Part shown: in pieces, positions 5,648 to 19,804 of the stretch
How the letters are laid out: the number at the start of each line of letters is the position of its first letter
Numbering within the stretch: the first letter of the stretch is position 1
Assembly: GCA_964648705.1 (NCBI GenBank)
Contig: CAZYOI010000002.1
Span: 1 to 30,058, forward strand
Source: an uncultured Candidatus Saccharibacteria bacterium
GTDB lineage: Bacteria > Patescibacteriota > Minisyncoccia > Minisyncoccales > GWA2-38-27
Direction: 5' to 3'
Length of the DNA stretch: 30,058 nucleotides
The notes under the pieces: generated by a model
The model's input: the letters and a program-made list of their open reading frames with translations, nothing else
Told to the model about the DNA's origin: nothing
Databases searched by the model: none
Program-made: the position numbers and the translations under genes

Positions 5648-6283
5648 TTACTTCTCCTTTCTGTTTAGAACCTGTGAAAGAACGACCTTTTTTGTCTCTT
5701 CAAAAACATCTTCAATAGATCCTTCTCCGTCAATAAGAAAAACATTGTCAAACAAAGAAGGAAACTTTTTGTAATAATCCAAAACCTTTGAAAGCTGTTT
5801 TTCTTTCTCAAAGAGAGTTTTTTCCATGCCTCTCTTTTCTATTCTTAAAATACAGGTTTTAGCCGAAACATCAAAAATCAAAGTAAGATCCGGCAGGATA
5901 AATTCCCTGTTTTTCTCAATTAATTCCTCCAGACTCAGCCCCTCAGCTGCTCCGTAAGCCAAGGTAGAAAAAAAATACCTGTCCAAAAGAACATATTTTC
6001 CCTCTTTCAGAGCAGGAAGAACCACTTTCTCTGTATTTTCTCTTCTGTCTTCAATAAAAAGATCCTGAAGCTCTTCAGGATCGGCCTTCATCTCCTTGTC
6101 TAGAACTTTTTTTATCTTTTTTCCTGCTTCAGAATAAACAGTAGGCTCTTTGGAGGATAAAACATCAATTCCTTTTCCTACTAAAAAATCGCGCACAAGC
6201 TTCAGCTGGGTGCTGTGGCCAGAGCCGTCCAGACCCTCAAAAACTATAAGTTTTCCAGGATAAGAATTTTTATTGATTGTCAT
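5648..6283 (-). CDS. tmk: Thymidylate kinase with atypical P-loop (GLDGSGHST); start reassigned to ATG 6283
   Basis: LIVFEGLDGSGxSTQ, KEP, LLDRYFFSTLAYG, PDLTLIFDV, IDGEGSIEDV; lies between dCMP deaminase and thyX. Confidence 0.9.
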   Translation of the reverse strand: MTINKNSYPGKLIVFEGLDGSGHSTQLKLVRDFLVGKGIDVLSSKEPTVYSEAGKKIKKVLDKEMKADPEELQDLFIEDRRENTEKVVLPALKEGKYVLLDRYFFSTLAYGAAEGLSLEELIEKNREFILPDLTLIFDVSAKTCILRIEKRGMEKTLFEKEKQLSKVLDYYKKFPSLFDNVFLIDGEGSIEDVFEETKKVVLSQVLNRKEK

Positions 6284-6764
6284 ATTCTTCCACCGTGTTA
6301 TCCATAACATCCAGCTTTACTCCGGCGCTTTTGAACAAATCCAGAGACATTTTATCTGCGTGATATCTTTTTTGGGCTACTACTCTCTTTATGCCCACTC
6401 TGACTATCCTCATAGCGCAGTTATAGCAGGGAACTAATTTAGTATAGATTGTCGCCCCTTTTACCCTTATTCCTTCCTGGGCGCACTGCAAAATAGCGTT
6501 TTCTTCGGCATGCAGAGTTCTTACGCAGTGCCGGGACTCGTTCCCCTGTTCGTCAATTACCGTCTTCATCATATGCCCGACATCGTCGCAATGAGGCTGG
6601 CCCGGCGGAGCTCCCACATAGCCCGTTGCCAAAATAGTGTTTCCCGGACTTACAATAACAGCTGAATTCCGGCCTCGATCGCAAGTGGCCCTCTTGCTGA
6701 GAGGCTCCAGCAGATTTAGAAAATATTCGTCCCAATTAGGACGGTTATGTTTGGATTCTTTCAT
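6270..6764 (-). CDS. dCMP deaminase (ComEB-like zinc-dependent deaminase)
   Basis: [25 protein letters not shown] and PCYNC zinc motifs. Confidence 0.9.
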
Positions 6765-17705: not shown

Positions 17706-18563
17706 TCAGTTCTCTTTCATATCCCGACGCGCAAAAAGCGTAGGACGCCAGGGATAAGGGATAAAGACAGAACCGAAGCTTATAGCTTCAGCTCCAAGCT
17801 CCCTCAACTCCTGAATATCCTCAAAGTCCCAGACACTGGGACCTATTACCGGGATAGAAAACTTTGAAGCCAATATCTCAGCAAAATCCCACGTAAAAGG
17901 AGAGGCCGCTTTTCCGGAGACTCCTCCTCCGCCAAGATGGGCCAAGGGACTTTCTTTGTTAGGAAAGACGATATCCCAAGGCACGCTGTTAATGGAAAAA
18001 GCCTCAATTATCCCCTTAACTTCGGGAATAATCTTTTCTACGTCATGAATTACGGAAAGCTTGAGAATGAGAGGAAATCTGGAAGCGTCTTCTGCGGATT
18101 TACAGCAATCGATGATTTTCCCTGCGCTCTCCAAAACTCCTTTCTCCGTATTGGGACAGGAGGCATTCAGCTCCATCCCTACAAGATTAAAACGGTTCAA
18201 AGCCATGCACATTTTAAAGACTTCATCCGGCTCCTCGCAGAAAACAGACCCTACCAGAGGTATTTTCCCGGAAATCTTGGGGGCTACCTTTCTGCACCAC
18301 CATTTATATCCTTTGTTGGTCAGCCCGACAGAGTTGACTGTTCCTCCTTCGATAAGACGGATACATCCGAAAGGGTTGTACCATCTTAAGTTTCCTTTTC
18401 TCGGCTCATAAGTAAGCGTTTTTATAACAACCGTGAACAAACTGGGGTCCAGCAGGCCCATCCATCTCAAGGGCTTCTCCCAAAACCATCCTTTTCCGTC
18501 AAAAGCAAGAGCTCCGGAAGCTACCATGTACTCGAACCTGTGCCCGTTTGACAGCTTTATCAT
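17706..18563 (-). CDS. pyrD: Dihydroorotate dehydrogenase, family 1-like (divergent)
   Basis: ASG, IKT, PRKGN, NSVGLTNKG, ELNASCPN (catalytic Cys), LKLS, GGVSG; operon with pyrF and pyrE. Confidence 0.85.
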   Translation of the reverse strand: MIKLSNGHRFEYMVASGALAFDGKGWFWEKPLRWMGLLDPSLFTVVIKTLTYEPRKGNLRWYNPFGCIRLIEGGTVNSVGLTNKGYKWWCRKVAPKISGKIPLVGSVFCEEPDEVFKMCMALNRFNLVGMELNASCPNTEKGVLESAGKIIDCCKSAEDASRFPLILKLSVIHDVEKIIPEVKGIIEAFSINSVPWDIVFPNKESPLAHLGGGGVSGKAASPFTWDFAEILASKFSIPVIGPSVWDFEDIQELRELGAEAISFGSVFIPYPWRPTLFARRDMKEN

Positions 18564-18600
18564 TATTCTTCTCCTTTTTTCAATGAACCAAAGATATTTT

Positions 18601-18628
18601 ATCCTAATACAATTTCCCCTTATGTCAA
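18601..18628 (-). promoter_or_regulatory. Putative promoter of pyrD-pyrF-pyrE
   Basis: Minus strand TTGACA (18628-18623), 16 bp, TAGGAT (18606-18601). Confidence 0.5.
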
Positions 18629-18631
18629 TAC

Positions 18632-18660
18632 TTGATTTTATACAGAAAATCAGTTAATAT
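18632..18660 (+). promoter_or_regulatory. Sigma70 promoter of the tRNA cluster, divergent from the pyr promoter
   Basis: TTGATT (18632-18637), 17 bp, TAATAT (18655-18660); tRNA 5' end at 18666. Confidence 0.65.
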
Positions 18661-18665
18661 GTTAC

Positions 18666-18981
18666 TGCGGGGTGGAGAAGTAGTATCTCGCGAGGCCCAT
18701 AAATTTTTGTGGCCTAGAGTAGCAATACTCTATGGAAAAATTCCTTAAATTGCCGGAAAACCATTATAGCTCTTTTTGCTACAACGTAATTCGCAAGAAT
18801 AGACGTGAATGCTAAGAAAAAAAGAGATTTGGTCACCAGCAGCCAAGCTGTTTTCTAAACAGAAGGTTCAGAGACTATAATAGGAATCTCCTTTAAGGAG
18901 AATGGGATAGTCCATTCCATTTAGAAATAAATGGTATCACTAAAGAACCTCGAGACGTCAGTGCAACTCTGGCCCCCGCAA
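18666..18981 (+). tRNA. Initiator-type tRNA-Met(CAU) split by an intron; exons 18666-18700 and 18946-18981
   Basis: Joined exons fold as a cloverleaf: acceptor TGCGGGG/CCCCGCA, D stem GAGA/TCTC, anticodon stem CGAGG/CCTCG with loop CC-CAT-AA, T stem GTCAG/CTGGC; fMet-like GCGGGGTGGAG...GGCCCCCGCAA ends; CCA not encoded. Confidence 0.9.
18701..18945 (+). ncRNA. Group I self-splicing intron (245 nt, no ORF) at tRNA position 36/37
   Basis: 5' exon ends in U with IGS GTGG (18709-18712); P2 TAGAGTA-GCAA-TACTCTA; P3 ATTCCT/AGGAAT; P-like AAATTGCCGGAAA; R GTTCAGAGACTATA; P7 GACTAT/ATAGTC; P8 CTCCT/AGGAG; P9 CCATTTA-GAAA-TAAATGG; terminal G at 18945. Confidence 0.93.
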
Positions 18982-19104
18982 CAAATTTATCCACATTATA
19001 TATTTACAAAAAAGAGGGGAAAGCATACGAGACATTGCAAAGAAGCTAGAAAAAGGTTTAATCGAAGGGTTATCAAAAGCCCGCCTTAAAAAAGAATAAA
19101 TTAC

Positions 19105-19175
19105 GCCGGGGAGTAGAATGGCATCTAAAGCCGTCTCATAAGCGGTTAAAGTGGGTTCGATTCCCGCCCCCGGCA
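19105..19175 (+). tRNA. tRNA(CAU), probably elongator tRNA-Met (Ile2 not excluded), with a non-canonical D region
   Basis: Acceptor GCCGGGG/CCCCGGC, A73; D stem TAGA/TCTA; anticodon stem GCCGT/GCGGT with loop CT-CAT-AA; T arm GTGGG-TTCGATT-CCCGC. Confidence 0.85.
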
Positions 19176-19179
19176 CACT

Positions 19180-19252
19180 GGGGGCGTAGATCAATTGGCA
19201 GATCGCATCCTTGTCACGGATGAGGTTGCCGGTTCAAATCCGGTCGCTCCCG
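19180..19252 (+). tRNA. tRNA-Asp(GUC), intron-less
   Basis: Acceptor GGGGGCG/CGCTCCC, G73; D stem GATC/GATC; anticodon stem CATCC/GGATG with loop TT-GTC-AC; T arm GCCGG-TTCAAAT-CCGGT. Confidence 0.97.
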
Positions 19253-19253
19253 C

Positions 19254-19286
19254 ATAAAAAAACACCTCTAAAGGAGTGTTTTTATT
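19254..19286. terminator. Probable bidirectional terminator between the tRNA cluster and the convergent gatA chain
   Basis: AAAAACAC(C)TCT-AAA-GGAGTGTTTTT hairpin flanked by A and T tracts. Confidence 0.7.
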
Positions 19287-19294
19287 AAAGAGAA

Positions 19295-19804
19295 TTAGAT
19301 AGCCTCCAGATCCCTTAAGGCCTCTTCATAAACCTTAAGCGTTTTCTCTGCCTCTTCTCTGTCTAGGCTGTAGTCTGGATCATGAACCACTTTGTTTCTA
19401 GTCCTGTGGGCTTCTTTTATCTCTTCCAGCTTGGGAACAACTCCCTCCTCCACATTATCCAAAACATCTTTTACCGTCTCCTCTTTGTAACCCATTTTCT
19501 GGAAAACCTCCCAGAGAAGGGTGTCTGCGTCAATCAAGGCCATTTTGAATTCAGATTCTTTTCCAGATTCCAAGCGCTTTAAAATCTCATCCCATCTTTT
19601 TCCCGTCTCTTTTCTTTCAAAAGGCCTGTAAGACAAAGCTTCTGTATAGTCCTCAAGATATTTGCGCTTCAGCCAGCTGTTTTTCAGCAGAAGAAAAACA
19701 ATCCAGGCAAAAAGATAAAGCCCTACGGCTATAAAGATAAATCTTGCTACTCTGTAAAGAGCGTAGACCTCCGGATTTTTAACAAACTCCAAAAAAGAAT
19801 TCAT
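19295..19804 (-). CDS. Membrane-anchored helical protein with HEPN-like Rx4H motif
   Basis: N-terminal TM helix (ARFIFIAVGLYLFAWIVFLLL); A..DAD.LL helix and HRTRNKVVHD; overlaps the gatA stop by 4 nt. Confidence 0.65.
   Translation of the reverse strand: MNSFLEFVKNPEVYALYRVARFIFIAVGLYLFAWIVFLLLKNSWLKRKYLEDYTEALSYRPFERKETGKRWDEILKRLESGKESEFKMALIDADTLLWEVFQKMGYKEETVKDVLDNVEEGVVPKLEEIKEAHRTRNKVVHDPDYSLDREEAEKTLKVYEEALRDLEAI

Follow-up and report, generated by a model that had tools for sequence, protein, structure and literature searches.

A compact group I intron at position 36/37 of an initiator-type tRNA gene in Patescibacteria, with an exact empty site in the same genus and a probable endonuclease-gene remnant alongside

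For the group I introns of tRNA genes, Williams 2020 (bioRxiv 10.1101/2020.01.27.920355) gives four classical classes, Leu.3Ug, Arg.5Ug, fMet.2Ug, and Ile2.5Ug, together with 17 new ones, and the seed alignment includes Yba21.fMet.5Ug. The introns of Azoarcus tRNA-Ile(CAU) and Agrobacterium tRNA-Arg(CCU) (Ile2.5Ug and Arg.5Ug; IC3) are small, are inserted at position 36/37 with a U.G pair and a terminal G, possess GNRA loops on P2 and P9, and keep the anticodon stem in the precursor. The cyanobacterial tRNA-fMet intron (fMet.2Ug; Biniszkiewicz et al. 1994) is inserted at 33/34 of the initiator tRNA and has a sporadic distribution suggesting lateral transfer; its endonuclease, where present, is encoded inside the intron, as is I-Ssp6803I in Synechocystis. 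Both placements, 36/37 for the Ile2 and Arg introns and 5' of the anticodon for the cyanobacterial fMet intron, were given in an initial annotation of the locus described here and agree with Williams 2020. In phages, a free-standing endonuclease is paired with an ORF-less intron in the collaborative homing of F-CphI/psbA (PMC3984707), and trans homing is described for mobE/I-TevIII (PMC2790892).

The window, the whole 30,058-nucleotide stretch that was analysed, derives from a Patescibacteria genome of 562 kb (0.56 Mb) in 59 contigs, 95% complete, designated G000 in the comparisons (G codes denote genomes, L codes loci, X1, X2, and X4 sequencing runs, and A2 the intron alignment). On its plus strand, the 5' exon of an initiator-type tRNA-Met(CAU) gene (18666–18700; tRNA nucleotides 1–36, ending with the anticodon CAU) is followed by a 245-nt, ORF-less group I intron (18701–18945) and the 3' exon (18946–18981; nucleotides 37–73, from A37 to the discriminator A73, with CCA not encoded). 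A spacer of 123 bases (18982–19104) separates the split gene from an elongator-type tRNA-Met(CAU) (19105–19176; ARAGORN, Rfam tRNA 40.1 bits) and tRNA-Asp(GUC) (19180–19253; ARAGORN and Rfam), the last member of the tRNA cluster. The locus is very probably a Patescibacteria initiator tRNA gene split at 36/37 by a compact intron of the fMet.5Ug class, a reading that draws on sequence, structure, covariation, the exact empty site, and distribution.

Compared with the Azoarcus and Agrobacterium introns, the window intron shares the 36/37 site, the U.G pair, the terminal G, the small size, the GNRA loops on P2 and P9, and the retained anticodon stem, but it differs in the host tRNA and in a long P5 extension; furthermore, J6/7-P7 reads GGUUCAGAGACUAUAAU in the window intron and GGUGUAGAGACUAGAC in the IC3 seeds. 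With the cyanobacterial fMet.2Ug intron it has in common the group I fold, the initiator host, and the sporadic distribution, whereas the insertion site is 36/37 instead of 33/34, and the candidate LAGLIDADG-like genes lie outside the tRNA gene rather than within the intron. The closest likeness is to the fMet.5Ug class, which is likewise compact and ORF-less, has an initiator-type tRNA(CAU) as its host with insertion at 36/37, and has U at position -1 and a terminal G. By eye, Yba21.fMet.5Ug shares the core strings AAAUUGCCGGAAA, GUUCAGAGACUAUAAU, and GGGAUAGUCC with the window intron, and its 3' end is near-identical to that of L095, one of the retrieved family members; however, it lacks the 66-nt P5 extension of the window copy, and the host lineages differ. 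The suggestion that an fMet 36/37 intron might be a new host/site combination therefore does not hold, since Yba21.fMet.5Ug is on record in Williams 2020 and the family occurs in at least 118 stretches (below). Such an intron is already described and, by the wide scan, common in Patescibacteria, and the window holds one more member.

The Rfam model RF00028 matches 18691–18934 on the plus strand over its full length (model positions 1–253) and scores 68.9 bits against a gathering score of 50 (E 1e-15). This is the only group I match in the window, and the rest of the 562-kb G000 assembly gives no further RF00028 match. When the 245 bases are removed, the joined exons (18666–18700 and 18946–18981) fold as tRNA-Met(CAU) in ARAGORN. 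The coordinates and anatomy first proposed, a compact ORF-less intron that splits an initiator-type tRNA(CAU) at 36/37, are borne out. The sole ORF within the intron is antisense, with a GTG start and 40 aa (18714–18836).

In the proposed fold, P1 is formed between C33-C34-A35-U36 of the exon and G18712–G18709 of the guide, with U18700.G18709 at the 5' splice site. P2 (18715–18732) is capped by a GCAA loop at 18722–18725. P3 pairs 18741–18745 with 18882–18886, and P4 pairs 18750–18753 with 18839–18842; the 66-nt P5 extension occupies 18764–18829, and P6/P6a 18843–18866. P7, read by eye, joins 18873–18877 to 18908–18912, P8 spans 18887–18901, and P9 (18918–18933) carries a GAAA loop at 18924–18927, before the terminal G (G18945). 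The precursor fold has a z-score of -4.3, better than all 200 shuffles. Among 52 consensus pairs, 51 are canonical in the window copy, and the sole mismatch, an A.C, is common to the nearest relatives, because of which the window copy looks intact at the sequence level. Every core position that is invariant in the 55-intron alignment is also present in it. A P1 register with a bulged C was considered and rejected; the covariation fits the unbulged register.

Comparative support derives from a wide scan of one genome per prokaryotic species, queried with the P7 + J8/7 core pattern of the intron, followed by alignment of 55 of the retrieved introns (A2) and folding with RNAalifold. The anticodon stem, P1, P2, P3, P4, P5, P6/P6a, P8, and P9 are all recovered, with compensatory changes in 40 of the 55 predicted pairs. 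Covariation backs P1, P2, P3, P5, P6a, P8, P9, and the anticodon stem, while P4 shows one-sided changes only. P7 is invariant across the 55 introns because it is part of the search pattern, and, as a pseudoknot with P3, it is undrawable in RNAalifold. U36.G at the 5' splice site is present in 55 of 55, and the terminal intron G is invariant. Simultaneously, base 33 covaries with the guide sequence, as U-A in 37 introns and C-G in 18. The long P5 extension exists in 34 of the 55, and four loci (L028, L029, L035, and L067) carry 20–50 extra bases in the P1 loop (A2, columns 16–63); since both additions are found in some members only, the peripheral elements of the family are modular. A small hairpin drawn by RNAalifold at columns 310–321 was discarded as spurious.

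The wide scan places the intron family in at least 118 stretches, nearly all labelled Patescibacteria. Host tRNAs were sought by brute-force exon joining with ARAGORN run on the products; among the matches listed, 105 yielded a tRNA, and 100 of these 105 are CAU tRNAs interrupted at loop position 5 (36/37). In total, more than 100 species genomes hold the family, nearly always at 36/37 of initiator-like tRNAs. The core pattern also matches group I introns in Bacillaceae, Halobacteriovoraceae, and Clostridium contigs (L094:617-876, L057:2268-2482, and L049:5677-5919), for which no tRNA-fMet host was resolved. One contig (L024:6094-6146 and 6233-6284, minus strand) has two copies of the core pattern 139 bases apart, with a split tRNA(CAU) for one of them only.

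With this fold, splicing would proceed in two steps. The tRNA-fMet, tRNA-Met, and tRNA-Asp cluster would be transcribed together, and the intron would fold into its P1–P9 core with the guide GUGG (18709–18712) pairing to exon C33-C34-A35-U36. Free guanosine would then attack after U18700, and the terminal G18945 would take the same site, so that the exons are ligated and the anticodon loop is restored; CCA would be added after ligation. Splicing activity is what we infer from the sequence of a copy in which the required elements are predicted to be in place.

The initial annotation proposed a survey of related genomes for occupied and empty alleles, and both are found. By DNA search the intron is present in 9 of 60 relatives, in one of the four species of the genus, and in 7 of the 37 genomes of the family (G000 included), where it is scattered over genera. 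In all three other species of the genus (G001–G003) the exon halves abut directly. The G003 exons are 100% identical to those of the window, with flanks of 74–75% identity, and exactly 245 bases are absent between them. Meanwhile, the nearest relatives of the intron itself, at 77–78% identity, reside in another genus (G027 and G033). A DNA contig of run X4, a third sample of the same microbial-mat study, also skips exactly 18701–18945, and further on skips 18988–19104; AAGCCGTA separates the two gaps, and the contig represents the G003-type allele. The empty-site joint in this contig (18700 to 18946) has a two-base ambiguity due to an AA repeat; 36/37 is the sole junction giving a 7-nt loop with the U/G pair, and it is this U/G rule that selects 36/37 within the ambiguity. 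The X4 joint was also considered as spliced RNA, and this was rejected, since the contig is DNA and derives from a related organism that lacks the intron. Within the genus, the intron is an optional feature. New here is that the exact empty site, flanked by identical exons, exists in a same-genus species and in a mat contig of the same study, and occupied and exactly empty alleles within one genus and one microbial-mat study form the more useful lead.

Around the initiator gene, the neighbourhood also differs between alleles. In intronless alleles, tRNA-Met follows 6–30 bases after the initiator gene. Many relatives with the intron carry a gene of about 225 codons at a distance of 16–120 bases from the tRNA, placed downstream in the same orientation or upstream in the divergent one. 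The encoded protein has an N-terminal helix-turn-helix (HTH), the only part matched in Pfam, and a motif GxALYWxEG in which E110-G111 is invariant. For residues 94–230 of its AlphaFold model (pLDDT 90), VIA-align places LAGLIDADG domains on top, with Z values of 5.2–7.0, every one below 8 (7qsu 7.0, I-DmoI 6.6, WhiA 6.6, and E-DreI 6.3). Foldseek against the PDB gives nothing below E 0.07, and a PDB sequence profile returns HTH domains only. With Z values of this middling size, the model suggests a LAGLIDADG-like putative endonuclease. The endonuclease of the cyanobacterial tRNA-fMet intron, by comparison, is of the PD-(D/E)XK type. At one locus (L007:1781-2566, genome G036), a different HTH + LAGLIDADG-like gene of 261 aa with a weak PF14528 match sits at the same downstream position, which suggests that one endonuclease gene was replaced by another.

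Full endonuclease-like genes of relatives occupy the position of the window spacer (18982–19104), which is 109–117 bases longer than the spacers of intronless alleles, and neither G003 nor the X4 contig has the extra stretch. When the family profile is scored against the window in 1353 six-frame segments, the spacer gives the top match, although a weak one (9.2 bits, E 0.047), comprising 18 HTH residues with the best match at 18998–19051 (frame 2; stop at 19097–19099). Its tail resembles the C-terminus of the family by eye, the C-terminal half being too short for profile scoring. The spacer is accordingly read, with moderate confidence, as a probable internally deleted remnant of the HTH + LAGLIDADG-like gene.

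The tRNA has an endonuclease-like gene or clear remnant as its neighbour in 6 of 10 intron-bearing versus 1 of 39 intronless genomes (Fisher p 1e-4 for co-occurrence, from 61 genomes whose lineages are not independent). At the 99 intron-bearing loci among the matches listed, the gene is present as a full copy in 30 and in part in 6, and 54 are without a gene of the family nearby. The patchy distribution of the intron, combined with the endonuclease-like neighbours in relatives, points to mobility at the DNA level. This mobility might be driven by the neighbouring nuclease gene, either through collaborative homing or through hitch-hiking of the intron on gene conversion. Tentatively, the intron and the putative HTH/LAGLIDADG-like nuclease may form a two-part mobile element of Patescibacteria tRNA genes that moves by trans or collaborative homing, of which the window would represent a late stage, with the nuclease gene decayed to a 123-base remnant that is still in frame, the intron persisting, and the empty site preserved in a sister species. 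No description of such a two-part element outside phages was found in the literature searched. In the phage systems the host is a phage protein gene, whereas here it is a cellular tRNA gene, the nuclease is putative, and only a remnant exists in the window.

A strict version of collaborative homing fits less well. In G025, a full-length endonuclease-like gene (L140, G025:C39:19300-20500) lies between an uninterrupted tRNA-fMet and tRNA-Met, and the anticodon stem-loop of this tRNA-fMet matches that of the other alleles. In collaborative homing the endonuclease would target the intron insertion site; in G025 the gene stands beside an uninterrupted site, and the link between this gene family and the intron is one of co-occurrence. 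The self-protection of the nuclease would therefore be independent of the intron, which argues against strict collaborative homing. Within G000 itself, two further HTH + LAGLIDADG-like ORFs of the same superfamily directly adjoin the intronless tRNA-Ala(GGC) (G000:C24:7929-8474, minus strand) and tRNA-Lys(UUU) (G000:C44:833-994, minus strand). Because of G025 and these tRNA-Ala and tRNA-Lys paralogues, a stand-alone, tRNA-associated selfish gene with the intron hitch-hiking is favoured. The intron may thus ride on the gene-conversion tracts of such a gene, in analogy to trans homing (PMC2790892).

Vertical inheritance within the family, with precise loss in G001–G003 and most other lineages and with the endonuclease-like genes as independent tRNA-hugging selfish genes, is rather unlikely as an account of the same pattern, though it has evidence to call on. 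G000 and the intronless G003 have identical exons between flanks of 74–75% identity, with no co-converted foreign exon apparent; genes of the family adjoin intronless tRNAs, namely those for Ala and Lys in G000 and fMet in G025; and more than half of the listed loci (54 of 99) have no such gene. However, the tRNA exons are so conserved that their identity says little, the intron is scattered (one of four species in the genus, 7 of 37 genomes in the family) with its nearest relatives in another genus, and intron and neighbour gene occur together far more often than expected. Movement of the intron with the help of the neighbouring gene is the reading kept here, its mechanism being suggested by sequence patterns. 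The relatives span intact to decayed copies of the neighbour gene, and a cycle of invasion, decay, and loss is directly testable among them. Any surprise lies more in this endonuclease story, for which the window shows only the remnant, than in the intron.

The split gene is invisible to ARAGORN in the default as well as the intron mode, and the default run sees only 19105–19176 and 19180–19253 at this locus. As anticipated in the initial annotation, standard annotation can therefore miss the tRNA, and a split gene explains why default tRNA finders can report the initiator tRNA missing in many Patescibacteria genomes. The same annotation raised the possibility that this is the only initiator tRNA gene; neither BLAST nor a stem-loop scan turned up another such gene in the assembly (562 kb, 95% complete). 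As the sole initiator-type gene found at this completeness, it makes initiation plausibly splicing-dependent. Translation initiation would most likely depend on the intron being spliced, and the split gene is probably essential. An initiator tRNA made only via ribozyme splicing, from a single copy in a 0.56-Mb genome, would be a notable dependency.

It is improbable that the split gene is instead a dead copy with a non-splicing intron, with a working initiator tRNA gene somewhere in the 5% of the genome left unassembled. The assembly does consist of 59 contigs with 34 tRNAs detected and several isoacceptors missing, and the runs holding the locus are DNA only (microbial-mat, aquatic, hot-spring, and sediment metagenomes). 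A dead copy is nevertheless hard to reconcile with exons identical to the intact G003 gene, with canonical pairing at all but one consensus pair, and with a fully kept invariant core. Moreover, the same arrangement exists in more than 100 species, and the intronless relatives have one such gene at the same locus. A gene kept functional through splicing is the preferred reading.

The identity of the interrupted tRNA rests on several partly atypical features. Canonical bacterial initiator tRNAs have an A11:U24 pair, a C1xA72 mismatch, and three G:C pairs at 29–31:39–41, and weak 1:72 pairs permit formylation. The spliced tRNA (ARAGORN, joined exons) has the anticodon CAU and a D stem GAGA/UCUC with A11:U24. 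Its 1:72 pair is U1-A72, weak but Watson-Crick, and the near-identical tRNAs of G027, G033, and G025 have the C1xA72 mismatch. Two of the three anticodon-stem pairs are G:C (A29-U41, G30-C40, and G31-C39), the same in all family members including the intronless ones. The base U33 is near-universal in tRNAs; here, C33 takes its place at 18697, as it also does in 21 of 70 distinct spliced initiator-type tRNAs and in intronless alleles of the family, and in the intron-bearing genes the guide sequence compensates C33 with G. Despite U1-A72, the two G:C pairs, and C33, the split tRNA is best read as initiator type.

That it might be an elongator tRNA-Met or a lysidine-modified tRNA-Ile2 as in Azoarcus, with 19105–19176 as the initiator, is highly improbable. 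The paired U1-A72, the two G:C pairs, and the Azoarcus-type Ile2.5Ug introns at the same position would suit such an assignment, but A11:U24 is present and the same tRNA carries C1xA72 in G027, G033, and G025. G000 has two CAU tRNAs, and the second (19105–19176) combines G1-C72 with an anticodon stem that lacks a G:C run. The two are best read as initiator and elongator because fmt (280.8 bits) and def (peptide deformylase, 166.4 bits) are present above the cut-off, TilS at 27 bits falls short of its cut-off of 93.6, and the genome encodes a tRNA-Ile(UAU). The spliced tRNA of the window, which has G55, belongs together with those of loci L003–L138 to a set of 70 distinct spliced initiator-type sequences in which the loops are coupled: D loops without GG (the AGUAGUA type, as in the window) go with T loops starting UGC in 42 cases, and D loops with GG go with T loops of UUC in 28, with zero exceptions. 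This coupling looks like covariation of the elbow pair, from G18-U55 to A18-G55.

A chimeric assembly of two populations that joined the intron into the tRNA gene, conceivable insofar as intron-bearing and intronless alleles of related organisms occur in the same study, is extremely improbable, as independent Logan contigs from two samples have the intron in place (X1, 18646–18822 and 18795–19400 at 100% identity; X2, 18543–19331) and more than 100 other assemblies show this architecture as well.

Several minor observations concern the surroundings of the gene. A simple promoter and terminator scan of the plus strand gave nothing usable; read by eye only, a TTGATT-17-TAATAT element stands upstream of the split tRNA and is kept in G003. 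Among the 34 tRNAs that ARAGORN counts in G000, those for Asn and Phe and the isoacceptors Ile(GAU), Gly(GCC/UCC), Ala(UGC), and Leu(UAA) were not found, which may stem from fragmentation of the assembly into 59 contigs or from further genes that are split or unusual. The elongator tRNA-Met at 19105–19176 is unusual in its D arm and scores low in Rfam (40 bits). This variant is kept in G003, G027, and G009, and other relatives have a standard tRNA-Met there.
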